In this document: positions 22,334 to 37,681 of the stretch, in pieces | How positions within the stretch are numbered: position 1 is the stretch's first letter | Layout: every line of letters begins with the position of its first letter | Virus record (IMG/VR): IMGVR_UViG_3300032332_001684 | Location: 1 to 46,168 of that record | Source of the DNA: a virus | Lineage: Duplodnaviria > Caudoviricetes | Direction: 5' to 3' (one strand) | Length of the DNA: 46,168 nt | Position numbers and translations under genes: made by a program | Notes under the pieces: model-generated | What the model saw: only the letters and a program-made list of their open reading frames with translations | Databases searched by the model: none | Told to the model about the DNA's origin: nothing

Positions 22334-22430
22334 CGTGCTCTCCTGTGTGTCCATGTTCACATTATATAGGGGCCCCGGCGGCCCGTCAACCCCATCTTGG
22401 GGCTGTTGTTTTTTTGCAACAGCCTTGTTA

Positions 22431-22676
22431 TTAAGCGTACATAACAGTTACGTCGCCTTCTACAATTAATGCAGCAAAGCCTTCTTCGCCTTCCTTTGCA
22501 GCCGCAACCCAATCGTCAAACAAGTCGTTGTTTACTTGTTCTCGTTCAAAAATAAGTATGCCGTTACAGCGTACAAAGTCTTTGCCTCGTTGCAATGTAA
22601 CATCAACAGTATTACCACTAGCGTATGCACTACTGTAATACTCCCCTGCCTCAACGTCAACTACTTTTACTTTCAT
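22431..22676 (-). CDS. Hypothetical proline-free protein (TC/CC-free gene)
   Basis: AAGGAG RBS; 81 aa. Confidence 0.75.
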   Translation of the reverse strand: MKVKVVDVEAGEYYSSAYASGNTVDVTLQRGKDFVRCNGILIFEREQVNNDLFDDWVAAAKEGEEGFAALIVEGDVTVMYA

Positions 22677-22697
22677 TGCGTTATACTCCTTGTTTAA

Positions 22698-23006
22698 TTA
22701 AACTAAACTTGCTTTACAAGCAAACTCTTCACGCGCAATTAAGTTGTGTTCCTCAATATATTGCAATAACTCTACAAAGTGCTCGCGCACAATAGTATCT
22801 TGCGCTATAATGTCCCTATGCAGTTTTTGCACATTGTGCTCTGCATTAAACTCTGCAAGTATACGTGTGTTGTAAACAATGTCGTGCGTATACTGTTTAA
22901 TGCTGTCTGCATTAGCAACATTGCAAAATTGCTCTGCGTATTCTGCAGTAAGCGTAAATGCAAGCACATTAATGTCTACAACGTGTTTTACAGTAAGTTT
23001 TTGCAT
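22698..23006 (-). CDS. Hypothetical proline-free protein (TC/CC-free gene)
   Basis: First gene after promoter 23040-23068; 102 aa. Confidence 0.75.
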   Translation of the reverse strand: MQKLTVKHVVDINVLAFTLTAEYAEQFCNVANADSIKQYTHDIVYNTRILAEFNAEHNVQKLHRDIIAQDTIVREHFVELLQYIEEHNLIAREEFACKASLV

Positions 23007-23154
23007 AACTTGCTCTCTGTGTTTTGTTTAAGTGTGTGTAGTATAGCGTAGCCAGCGGGGACTGTCAACTGTCGCATAAAAACAACACCTGCTGTTGTAT
23101 TTCTCCCACAAATCATGGTTCGGATTGACGGCCTCTCTCGGAGGCCGCTATCAT

Positions 23155-34281: not shown

Positions 34282-35013
34282 ATGAATATTGTTTTTGGCA
34301 TCTGTGGGGAAGGTCAAAGATTTAGGGATGCAGGATACAGTCAACCCAAATATCTTATAGAGTATCTTGGCCATTCCATGATCTATCATGCTGTGAAAAC
34401 TTTGAAAATTCTCGGCAAGATTTATTTTATAGTTAGGCAACAACATCTAGATCAATATCAAAATTTAGAACAAGACCTTTTGTCTATAGGTGACAAAATC
34501 ATTGTGTCTCCAGGATCAACATCTGGAGCAGCCGCAACTCTCTTGTTAACTCGAGACCACATAGATCATGATGAGCCTTTGATGTCAGTCAATTGTGATC
34601 AATATATGAATTGGGATTCTAAAGACTTTATGGCCAAATTGTCTGCCAATCAATCGACATCGTATGTGCTGACATTTAAAAGTGATAACCCTAGTTACAG
34701 TTATATCAAAATAAAAAACAATCAGGTAATAGAACTAAAAGAAAAAGAAAGGATCAGTGACCTTGCCACCTGTGGTATGTACCATTGGGCTAGAGCAGGA
34801 GATTTTTTTCAAGATGCACAGCAGATGATCTTTGAAAATAAAAACTCAAATAAAGAGCATTATGTGGCACCAGTATATAATTACTCTATAGCAAGAGGAG
34901 TAGTTGTTGATCATTATGAAATTGATCAACAACAGTTTTGGCCAGTAGGGACTCCTGGCGAACTTGATAAATTTTTAAAAAACTATGAAAATTCAAAATG
35001 TAAAAACTCTTAA
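34282..35013 (+). CDS. Sugar-phosphate nucleotidyltransferase (NTP_transferase, GT-A fold)
   Basis: GEGQRF..AGY..PKYLI, T.GAAAT, VNCDQ, KEK.RISD.AT.G.YHW, E.YVAPVYN, GTP.EL. Confidence 0.85.
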   Translation: MNIVFGICGEGQRFRDAGYSQPKYLIEYLGHSMIYHAVKTLKILGKIYFIVRQQHLDQYQNLEQDLLSIGDKIIVSPGSTSGAAATLLLTRDHIDHDEPLMSVNCDQYMNWDSKDFMAKLSANQSTSYVLTFKSDNPSYSYIKIKNNQVIELKEKERISDLATCGMYHWARAGDFFQDAQQMIFENKNSNKEHYVAPVYNYSIARGVVVDHYEIDQQQFWPVGTPGELDKFLKNYENSKCKNS

Positions 35014-35956
35014 AGGTGGGTCCTTAAACACTACTAAATTGTATGAAACTGATCAAGACAGTTTTATTAGAAAGTATGTGAGATTAGATTCTGACAGAGA
35101 ATATGGTTATGTTCGTTGGTACAGTCAATTTAAAAAACTACAGAGATTTAATCAAATGTTTCCCGGGCTGGTACCTGAAATCAGAGACATAGGAGAAGAA
35201 AATAATCATGCCTATGTGGAAATGCAATATGTGCCTAATCTAGATATTAAAACTCTATTTCAAAAGAATCTATTAGCAGGCCAGCAGGTAATAGAATTGA
35301 ATATAGCCTTATGGAAATCTTTTGATCTAATACATTCTCACAGATATAAACATTGTGCCAGTTCCCTATCTTTATATTTTATTGAAGAGGTAGAACAAAA
35401 ATTAAATGATGCTAGAAAATTCTCTGAATTTGAAAAATTCTATCAATTGGGATCGTACACTTATCAAGGAAAGACTGTTAGAGGACTCAACAAGACATAT
35501 CAAAAATTTAAAAAACTGTTTAATGGCAACATTACCGAGGAATCATATGTTCACGGAAATCCTACTCTAGAGAACATACTGTACGATCCTTTGACCAAAA
35601 AGGTAACCTTTATAGATCTCTATGAAGAAGGCATAGTAGACTCTAAGTTGGCAGATTACTCAATGGTTTTACAGTGTAGTCATAGTCTATACGGAGTCTA
35701 CAACGATCATGTAATAGCCGTCGATGGAAATGCAGTGACCTCTGATGCGGTGGTGCCCAGTGAATTGATTAGGTTCAATGATATTTTCAACAGCACTCTA
35801 GCAGATAGATGCAGTGATGAAGAGTTAGCACTGATAAAACTGTTTGAAGCAACACAATTTTTTAGGATGCTGCCCTTCAAATGTCATGCTGGTTATGTAG
35901 ATGCTGCAAAATTCTTTTATGTTCATGCATGTTATCTTGTAAATGATTTATTATGA
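34985..35956 (+). CDS. APH/choline-kinase-like phosphotransferase
   Basis: LKGGS Gly-loop, IRK, HGNPTLENILY (catalytic-loop variant with N in place of D), FID. Confidence 0.7.
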   Translation: MKIQNVKTLKGGSLNTTKLYETDQDSFIRKYVRLDSDREYGYVRWYSQFKKLQRFNQMFPGLVPEIRDIGEENNHAYVEMQYVPNLDIKTLFQKNLLAGQQVIELNIALWKSFDLIHSHRYKHCASSLSLYFIEEVEQKLNDARKFSEFEKFYQLGSYTYQGKTVRGLNKTYQKFKKLFNGNITEESYVHGNPTLENILYDPLTKKVTFIDLYEEGIVDSKLADYSMVLQCSHSLYGVYNDHVIAVDGNAVTSDAVVPSELIRFNDIFNSTLADRCSDEELALIKLFEATQFFRMLPFKCHAGYVDAAKFFYVHACYLVNDLL

Positions 35957-37020
35957 AATGGACAGTCAATGCCAACATTCCTGTTGAGTTTGATATTACC
36001 AAAATAGACAATATCAAGCCCTATATAGATTCAAATGTAGGACGTAATATTGTCGTGGTTGATCGCACAGTTTATGATCTATATCCTGATCTGTTCAAGT
36101 TAAAATCAAAAGATGCTGTGTTGGTAATTAACTGTCAAGAATCTACAAAGAATATTTCTTTGGTAGAGCAAATATTGTCTTTCTTTGAACAACAACAGGT
36201 GTTAAGAAGGGCCGAACCTATCTTGGCTATTGGTGGAGGAGTGCTATTAGACACTGTGGGATTCTGTTGCAGTATCTATCGTAGGGGAATACCTTACATA
36301 AGAATACCTACCACCTTGTTGGCCATTGTTGATGCCAGTGTAGGAGCCAAAACCGGTATCAATCATTTTGATAGAAGAAACAGATTAGGCAGTTATTATC
36401 CTCCTAGAACAACTATCATTGATCGATCTTTTATCAAAACTCAAACTGCTAGAGACATTGCTAACGGAGTAGCAGAAATATTGAAATTGGCCATTGTGCT
36501 GGATCTAGAGCTATTTGAACTGTTAGAATCATCAAACTCTTTGATTAACAATAAATTCCAGTGTCAGGTCGCTGACAATATTATAGATCGATCAATTACG
36601 GGTATGATAACAGCACTGAATCAAAATCTTTGGGAACATAATCTACAGAGGGAAGTAGATTTTGGTCATACATTTAGCCCAATTGTCGAAATGAAAAATA
36701 TAGAAACTATGCTGCATGGCGAAGCAGTTATATTAGATTGTCTTTTTAGCTGTTGCATATCTACCAACAGAGGTTTATTAGATTACCAAAACTTATACAG
36801 AATCCTCAAAGTAATTCAACAATTTGGTCTTCCTACTCAGCATGAAGATTTTTACAACCAAGACCTCTTGGATTTAGGATTTAAAGATGTTATAAAACAT
36901 AGAAACGGCAATCAATACTTGCCGTTGCCTACAAAAATAGGACAATGCAGAATTGTCAATGACATCAACTATAGAGAAATTCAAGAAGCAGTTAACACTA
37001 TGAGAATGTTAAATGAATAA
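35953..37020 (+). CDS. Sedoheptulose-7-phosphate cyclase, 2-epi-5-epi-valiolone synthase (EEVS)-type
   Basis: GGGVLLD, YRRGIPY.RIPTTLLAIVDASVGAKTG, NLWE..LQR.VDFGHTFSP, LHGEAV. Confidence 0.85.
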   Translation: MKWTVNANIPVEFDITKIDNIKPYIDSNVGRNIVVVDRTVYDLYPDLFKLKSKDAVLVINCQESTKNISLVEQILSFFEQQQVLRRAEPILAIGGGVLLDTVGFCCSIYRRGIPYIRIPTTLLAIVDASVGAKTGINHFDRRNRLGSYYPPRTTIIDRSFIKTQTARDIANGVAEILKLAIVLDLELFELLESSNSLINNKFQCQVADNIIDRSITGMITALNQNLWEHNLQREVDFGHTFSPIVEMKNIETMLHGEAVILDCLFSCCISTNRGLLDYQNLYRILKVIQQFGLPTQHEDFYNQDLLDLGFKDVIKHRNGNQYLPLPTKIGQCRIVNDINYREIQEAVNTMRMLNE

Positions 37021-37681
37021 GCATGCCCTAATTACCGGTACCAGCAGAGGATTGGGCCTAGAAACTGTCAAACACTTTTTATCTAAAGGTTGGTCTGTTA
37101 CAGGCATATCAAGAACTCAATCATTAACTCACAGCAACTATCAACATCTTTCCGCAGATATTTCAAATAGAGATGAACTGGCCAAAGTAATTTCCTATAT
37201 TCATTCGGACATTGATCTATTGATCAACAACGCCGCGGTATTTTCAATGCAGCCTTTTTCTAGTGAGTCTATCAATAACATTGAACAGATCATAGATATC
37301 AATCTAAAAGGCAGTATCTATACCACTAAATTCTGTTTAAGGCAATTACGAAATAGCAGCAAAATAATTTTTATTAATTCAGTAGCAGGGTTATCTGAAC
37401 TGGAAAATCAATCAGTATACTGTGCTGCCAAACACGGATTGACAGCGTTTGCAGGAGTGCTTGGAAAAGAATTAAGAACACAGGGAATAAAGGTTGCCAG
37501 TATCCATCCTGGCGGAATTAACACCAGCCTATGGAATGCCAGTAATCCCTATCCCTGTGGACCTGCTGAATCAGCTATGCCTGCACAGGCAGTGATCGAT
37601 GTTATTGATTTTATAGCCAACAGTGCTTACGACGTTGACTACAAAACTGTAAAACTTTTCCCCTCGATAGAATGGCACTAA
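37013..37681 (+). CDS. SDR family oxidoreductase
   Basis: TGTSRGLG, LINNAA, INS, YCAAK, PGG.NT. Confidence 0.9.
   Translation: MNKHALITGTSRGLGLETVKHFLSKGWSVTGISRTQSLTHSNYQHLSADISNRDELAKVISYIHSDIDLLINNAAVFSMQPFSSESINNIEQIIDINLKGSIYTTKFCLRQLRNSSKIIFINSVAGLSELENQSVYCAAKHGLTAFAGVLGKELRTQGIKVASIHPGGINTSLWNASNPYPCGPAESAMPAQAVIDVIDFIANSAYDVDYKTVKLFPSIEWH

Follow-up and report, generated by a model that had tools for sequence, protein, structure and literature searches.

A phage transcription unit without GA or GG on its template strand, and its possible relation to guanine modification

In T5 and BF23, selection has reportedly removed certain motifs from the early DNA, which is injected first, the motifs being longer host restriction or methylation sites, avoided on both strands. 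The avoidance considered here differs in that it concerns a two-letter step, is strand-biased, is likely directed at the phage's own mark and alters the amino-acid content of the proteins. With respect to the chemistry, a term of comparison is provided by CAjan, with dPreQ0 at GA and GGC (PMC7544227), and iggy, with dPreQ0 at GA (PMC10484667), i.e. a 7-deazaguanine written by a transglycosylase at a G that precedes a purine. However, their DpdA1 belongs to another subfamily, without a match in the clade of the present locus, they contain QueC, which was not found here, and, when examined as positive controls, they showed no gene-length island (an island being a stretch from which TC and CC are missing on the message strand). 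PA5oct (Wroclawvirus) is closer. Its DNA is reportedly modified at G in GA and/or GG, as judged from restriction resistance, with the cutting enzymes deduced from the text (PMC12191111), it needs the RNA polymerase of its host (PMC7318152), and a DpdA3 (QCG76197.1) is entered for it, with FolE, QueD, QueE and DpdL, in the supplement of PMC10516641. The likeness to the clade described below extends to the same gene set, with a glycosyltransferase-like gene near DpdA3, to the inferred modified motif, which equals the banned steps, and to the near-identical phage Paride, which carries motif-free regulatory patches. In contrast to PA5oct, for which nothing of the kind has been described, whole genes and their proteins are recoded here, mainly on the template strand; note also that the modification of PA5oct is reported on the basis of restriction resistance, and that the modification of the present clade is a putative one. 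Finally, the purine bias of coding strands linked to Rho avoidance (PMC13323073) is also a strand-specific, transcription-linked recoding, with UC/CC as the recognition unit; however, in Bacilli that bias is a quantitative one and extends over the whole genome, whereas the ban in the islands is absolute, limited to few genes and extended to the other strand and to untranscribed DNA.

The window, the whole stretch of 46,168 nucleotides that was analysed, is a viral fragment, estimated to be 10% complete, of an uncultured freshwater giant phage; it carries T4-like replication genes and, among cultured phages, is most closely related to Phosso, Atu_ph07 and the PA5oct-like and GAP32-like jumbo phages. 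Between 19427 and 29915 the minus strand holds 19 near-consensus sigma70-type promoters, one per small gene, many of them with a short palindrome in the 17-bp spacer. Embedded in this array of small minus-strand genes, most of which have a normal TC/CC content, is one transcription unit of 656 bp (22402..23057, minus strand) whose template strand is free of GA and GG and whose message strand is, equivalently, free of TC and CC. It would be read from a sigma70-type promoter predicted by sequence and pattern scan at 23040..23068 on the minus strand (TTGACA, 23068-23063; TATACT, 23045-23040), the 17-bp spacer of which contains the last TCCCC before the clean run. ORF-A (22698..23006, minus strand) encodes 102 residues, with no Pro, Gly or Trp; none of its 53 C lies in TC or CC, and 18 of its 63 G lie in GA or GG. 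A 21-bp spacer, with a putative Shine-Dalgarno AGGAG at 22686..22690 (minus strand), separates it from ORF-B (22431..22676, minus strand), which encodes an acidic protein of 81 residues without Pro, with TC/CC at 0 of 35 C and GA/GG at 32 of 68 G. A palindromic box with 8-bp arms (22401..22424), detected by sequence and box scan, lies at the close of the unit, immediately upstream of the promoter that follows, as a putative terminator or operator. Boxes of this TGTTG...CAACA type recur just upstream of promoters (22401-22424, 23082-23098, 27566 and 17575, and also in the related loci L022 and L056), and a possible function is that of an operator. Neither ORF belongs to a known family: Pfam gave no family match and PHROG nothing below E 0.029, and a comparison with described anti-defence families (Pfam, PHROG and named Atlas clusters at 0.9) gave no match either. 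The Atlas yielded no usable match for ORF-A and, for ORF-B, matches solely to unnamed phage proteins with scores below 0.9, and no ORF-B homologue was found in INPHARED. Elsewhere in the window, a run on the plus strand (34282-37681) encodes a nucleotidyltransferase, a kinase-like ORF, an AroB-like sugar-phosphate cyclase and a short-chain dehydrogenase, which possibly make an activated sugar or cyclitol, conceivably the donor for a glycosyltransferase.

An earlier note on this DNA had stated that every G (about 109) on the plus strand between 22403 and 23056 precedes C or T, and the computed count agrees exactly, with 109 G, of which 50 are in GC, 59 in GT and none in GA or GG. The boundaries that it gave, at the TCCCC of the promoter spacer and at the end of the downstream palindrome, were recovered as well, as were the absence of proline from both proteins, due to the lack of GA/GG on the template strand, and the use of AGY for all Ser codons (5 of 5). 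Its description of the bias as strand-specific holds in that TC (36) and CC (20) are present on the plus strand of 22403-23056, but needs softening in that GA/GG are also few on the coding strand of ORF-A (the 18 of 63 G given above). The unit contains 110 consecutive G without GA or GG, versus about 14 expected as a maximum; the second-longest GA/GG-free run in the window spans 84 bp, and no other dinucleotide pair is absent for more than 237 bp. The count against shuffled nulls that the note had proposed never gave zero, either in 5,000 mononucleotide shuffles (GA+GG, 47.6 ± 4.7, minimum 31) or in 5,000 synonymous resamplings with the codon usage of the window (TC+CC, 20.4, minimum 4, for ORF-A; 13.1, minimum 2, for ORF-B). 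When codons were shuffled synonymously within each gene, zero TC+CC was obtained in 0% of the trials for ORF-A and in 12% for ORF-B. The region is also covered by contigs of four other runs, with many substitutions, so that the island is not an assembly artefact; among the 18 listed island substitutions one would create GA, versus 22% of all possible changes, a comparison that, covering part of the substitutions, carries no information.

The ban is shared by relatives. TC and CC are both zero in 29 of 33 ORF-B homologue loci (L012, a duplicate of L004, being omitted), one site is present in two, and two, from the T4-like genomes G001 and G002, lack only CC; in the partner gene of the 'EQGMQ' family TC/CC is zero in 58 of 80 loci, retained from among 406 confirmed viral loci, with 1-6 sites in 14, 10-17 in seven and only CC absent in one, counts that in both cases are not independent because many loci are near-duplicates. 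Database matches of ORF-B numbered 38, including itself, and 34 of the 37 aligned homologues have no proline, the other three having one each. Thus, the question raised earlier, whether homologues would also be YC-free and Pro-free (Y, pyrimidine; R, purine), finds a largely positive answer for ORF-B. The homologues of ORF-A (n=17) are depleted and mostly not clean, YC accounting for 0-11 of 44-66 C in nine loci; L003 was discarded as an ORF-A homologue, its match being at chance level. TC/CC-free runs in relatives reach 1,445 nt, the ban still holds in homologues whose proteins are about 45% identical, and the YC fraction of distinct called genes is bimodal, with 86 genes below 0.05 and the remainder peaking at 0.35-0.45. 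In L145, a minus-strand gene lies between plus-strand island genes, and it is the message strand of this gene itself that is clean, so that the ban tracks the direction of transcription. This flip and the conservation across distant homologues bear out the earlier suggestion that selection keeps such units expressible.

Among the members of the islands, the unnamed 'EQGMQ' family (L002:6966-7322 and a further 79 loci) is the most constant, and it has a homologue in the cultured Xanthomonas phages BUDD and X1; its protein is the best candidate for a key early function. Lower-GC relatives, all short records (L126, L128, L129, L132, L137, L139 and L146), have near-normal TC/CC in this gene and would be natural negative controls. 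In the two T4-like genomes, the ORF-B homologue lies in a CC-free or nearly C-free island (L035:8658-9349 in G002; L037:9396-10278 in G001), that of G002 including 205 nt without any C.

Island proteins are small and mostly acidic, with 0.1% proline versus 3.4% in controls, and the acidic island genes keep near-normal GR on the coding strand; a Pfam search with 24 island and control proteins returned no informative family. AGY accounts for 385 of the 388 Ser codons of island genes, the purine content of which is 0.60 versus 0.54, with TT enriched (O/E 1.37), AC and GC strongly enriched, and UU and CU not depleted. The residual sites show no tolerated sub-motif, save a slight excess of GGT, and residual CC is frequently located in hairpin stems. 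A TC/CC context, stronger on the non-template strand, is the signature of cytidine deaminases, and past hypermutation, or a current attack on the exposed non-template strand, would match the observed context and strand bias as well as the excess of TT. However, C-to-T changes cannot produce the AGY serine codons, AC and GC are strongly enriched, and the boundaries at promoters and hairpins are sharp, making a deaminase a most improbable cause. UV photoproducts were rejected, TT being plentiful on both strands.

The main alternative explanation is that host Rho loads on UC/CC of the nascent RNA, and that early transcripts were recoded to deny it a foothold. The motif is identical, E. coli Rho recognizing up to six CC or UC dinucleotides (PMC13323073), and the depletion of UC/CC was indeed found on the message strand and follows gene direction. 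Avoidance of Rho would also account for the CC tolerated in hairpin stems, for the higher proportion of purines in island genes and for the scarcity of C in the islands of the T4-like genomes. However, Rho needs several sites and would not demand a complete absence across more than 1 kb together with the loss of proline noted above; nor are UU and CU depleted. Furthermore, the effect is not confined to transcribed RNA: GA/GG are also lost from the message strand, depletion extends upstream of the start site, and the patches of Paride involve both strands, none of which Rho can account for. As the sole cause Rho is rather unlikely, although it could act together with a pressure from modification.

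Strand specificity alone cannot distinguish a DNA-level from an RNA-level cause, since each UC/CC of the message corresponds, as its reverse complement, to a GA/GG of the template. Informative in this respect are the loci in which both strands are affected. Neither YC nor GR occurs for 484 nt in L031:2204-2687; in L141:159-722, YC accounts for 8 of 143 C and GR for 5 of 106 G, and in L114:4140-4409 the values are 17 of 62 for YC and 2 of 41 for GR. The avoidance of GA/GG on both strands leaves the ORFs at L031:2286-2684 and L141:159-722 nearly devoid of Asp, Glu, Gly, Trp and Pro. Among Lys, Glu and Gln codons, those ending in G are under-used before a purine, with an odds ratio of 0.48 in 91 island genes versus 0.76 in 619 controls. 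In the untranscribed DNA of the 23 first-in-island promoters, GR is 0.25, 0.16 and 0.17 at positions −50..−36, −20..−13 and −6..−1, compared with 0.53, 0.34 and 0.55 in the same bins of 574 other promoters; YC is also low in two of the three upstream bins, and bin −29..−21 gave no significant difference in these 23 promoters. In G006, the genome closest to the window among those compared, the 81 sigma70-type promoters are low in YC at −6..+19 (0.16-0.23 versus 0.40-0.45), a depletion not seen in the 42 promoters of G001. The depletion of both strands, and that of untranscribed promoter DNA, argue for a cause that acts on DNA and is not solely an RNA signal.

Of the options listed in the earlier note, the data favour the one that places the cause at GR of the template strand, and nothing points to the agents that it named, namely a host RNase, a deaminase, an ADP-ribosyltransferase or UV damage. 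An RNA-level toxin, i.e. a UC/CC-specific single-strand endoribonuclease or an RNA-modifying enzyme, of host or phage, that would degrade other messengers while sparing these, is very unlikely. A single-hit agent of this type would fit the strict zero, the strand specificity and the tolerance in stems; however, the loss of GR and the promoter depletion would be left unaccounted for, a Pfam scan of 255 ORFs of 130-800 residues in G006 gave no candidate enzyme, and a host toxin would need to be common to the hosts of dozens of lineages.

The best candidate agent is a putative 7-deazaguanine-type modification made by the phage itself, which, like Rho, did not figure among the options of the earlier note. 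G006 (353 kb, 98% complete) contains a single 922-bp island and is 42-80% identical to the window in eight core proteins. Beside its DNA polymerase are found P0056 (514 residues), a DpdL homologue (LGYPHRHIF, in agreement with LxxxHRHxF), a glycosyltransferase-like gene, FolE and QueE, with QueD encoded elsewhere; no clear QueC was detected, a weak Pfam match (E 1e-5) lying far from the cluster and none being obtained with CAjan QueC. The predicted structure of P0056 (pLDDT 92) matches tRNA-guanine transglycosylases in a fold search (E 2e-7), the only search to place it; the PDB, when queried at the sequence level with P0056, with its profile and with the glycosyltransferase, returned nothing. 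It contains the motifs DSGG, LDVP, VLQG and HFLG, and the label of the glycosyltransferase presumably holds on the basis of a GT4 motif and of the names of homologues in GenBank records. Against 50,697 deposited phage records P0056 gave 13 matches, namely 11 PA5oct-like phages, Phosso and Vibrio 2.275.O; the PA5oct homologue, 43.5% identical, is the QCG76197.1 entered as DpdA3. From this homologue and the fold, P0056 is probably a DpdA-family enzyme of the DpdA3 type with a TGT fold.

Classic DpdA1/TGT enzymes were considered and rejected, as Pfam TGT was found in 0 of 5 records and CAjan DpdA in 0 of 27, and tblastn with the DpdA of CAjan and iggy gave nothing in the loci searched; the relevant DpdA is of a more distant family, recognized from the FolE neighbourhood. 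A homologue of P0056 is present in seven of the nine island-bearing records of at least 185 kb (two of them identical) and FolE in eight of the nine. P0056 had no match in the shorter records (5-43% complete), nor in G000, the window's own record; since this 10% complete fragment holds none of the modification genes, the link of the window to them is by kinship. G001 encodes FolE, QueD, QueE, DpdL and a different DpdA-like gene, with no matching glycosyltransferase; its ORF at L038:15244 was rejected as a DpdA candidate. The CC-poor or C-poor islands of G001 and G002 fit another enzyme specificity, and also Rho. In G006, G001 and Paride, the deazaguanine cluster also includes a phosphoribosyltransferase gene (L156:10587-11129, L048:375-818).

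Cultured phages give a mixed picture. Paride contains eight patches without GA, GG, TC and CC on both strands, versus one in the converse control class, with up to 60 informative bases compared with about 17 expected. The patches viewed lie in non-coding DNA or overlap very small unassigned ORFs, being regulatory rather than whole genes, and include the tandem sigma70 promoters of the tRNA cluster, in which the −35 element is TTGCAA, not TTGACA. The one enzyme discordant with the motif of PA5oct, ApaLI, contains no GA/GG step and has only two sites in Paride. A 58-bp stretch of CAjan (53680-53737; L066:23680-23737), in a region of small genes, is free of GA, GG, TC and CC on both strands, with 30 informative bases versus 16 expected. 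Phosso has a DpdA3-like gene (29% identical), a glycosyltransferase and DpdL, yet no island (best run 26 versus 17 expected); Vibrio 2.275.O has a DpdA3-like gene and a best run of 25, and BUDD and ACP17, with a DpdA2-type enzyme plus a glycosyltransferase, have no island. A scan of other G contexts in these four phages gave nothing convincing. Neither pathway genes nor islands were found in GAP32, RsoM2USA and Atu_ph07 (480 of 490 kb read), and the absence of islands from these three related jumbo phages of proteobacteria, which have no modification genes, also speaks against Rho. In the small set of genomes examined, the pathway looks necessary but not sufficient for an island.

With these elements, the island unit is probably kept free of the phage's own GA/GG guanine modification so that the host sigma70 RNA polymerase can read it. 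The genome from which the window derives would encode DpdA3, DpdL, FolE, QueD, QueE and the glycosyltransferase; once the DNA has replicated, DpdA3 would exchange the G of GA/GG for a derivative of 7-deazaguanine, and the glycosyltransferase encoded nearby may make the modified base bulky. The injected DNA would then be fully modified, and each modified G of the template would slow or stop the host polymerase. At promoters, sites on either strand would hinder opening, and elsewhere those of the non-template strand would matter little. Genes needed first would be kept clean at the cost of proline and of TCN serine, and acidic proteins would retain GA on the message strand, which is not the strand that is read and on which Asp and Glu cannot be encoded without it. 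The products, small and for the most part acidic, for which no family match was obtained, would likely be first-wave proteins for host takeover or counter-defence, and one of them may make the rest of the genome readable.

The same phage modification could instead be read by a modification-dependent host nuclease or glycosylase of the END type, units with a clean template surviving to express inhibitors. All of the DNA-level evidence applies equally, small acidic island proteins would be in keeping with it, and END nucleases target PA5oct, which encodes an inhibitor (PMC12191111). However, a double-strand nuclease should demand that both strands be clear, while most island genes are clear only on the template, and the promoter depletion of G006 at −6..+19 (n=81) points to polymerase contacts. 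We therefore regard this alternative as unlikely.

Returning to a block of host transcription by the phage's own modification, its weak points are Phosso, with the genes but no island, the results given above for Vibrio 2.275.O, BUDD, ACP17, CAjan and iggy, and Paride, where the patches are regulatory only. Also counting against it are the lack of the modification genes in the window fragment, the near-normal GR on the coding strand of acidic island genes and the neighbours with normal TC/CC, from which last it follows that the phage must read modified DNA somehow; residual CC in hairpin stems also fits an RNA reader. Characterized DpdA3 enzymes replace all G and not only that of GR (PMC10516641). 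The ban spares GC and GT, and the text on PA5oct implies partial modification, so this DpdA3, or a second step after it, looks context-specific.

In the literature searched, with subscription journals mostly outside its scope, modified phages with early genes free of the motif were not found to be described. The enzymes resemble a known kind, and what is rated new is the absolute, strand-biased recoding of whole genes. Whatever the mechanism, something in the infected cell reads a two-letter step almost site by site. The ban can be computed, and it marks both the motif of a modification that is yet to be measured and the genes that come first in uncultured phages; the island genes are a limited set of candidates to screen for counter-defence. 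A new guanine chemistry (DpdA3 plus glycosyltransferase), approachable in the cultured PA5oct and Paride, is also suggested. A bolder and more tentative proposal is that a widespread group of aquatic jumbo phages may armour its DNA at GA/GG with a putative, hitherto undescribed glycosylated form of 7-deazaguanine, impassable for the host RNA polymerase, and may bootstrap from clean islands whose proline-free proteins include a transcription-unlocking factor; if so, sequence alone would be enough for the island to disclose the motif of the modification as well as the true genes of the first wave. DNA hypermodification is usually viewed as a protection from restriction and CRISPR that comes at no cost. 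Should the present reading be true, it would have a transcription cost that rewrites genes and strips amino acids from their products, paid with modification-free first genes.
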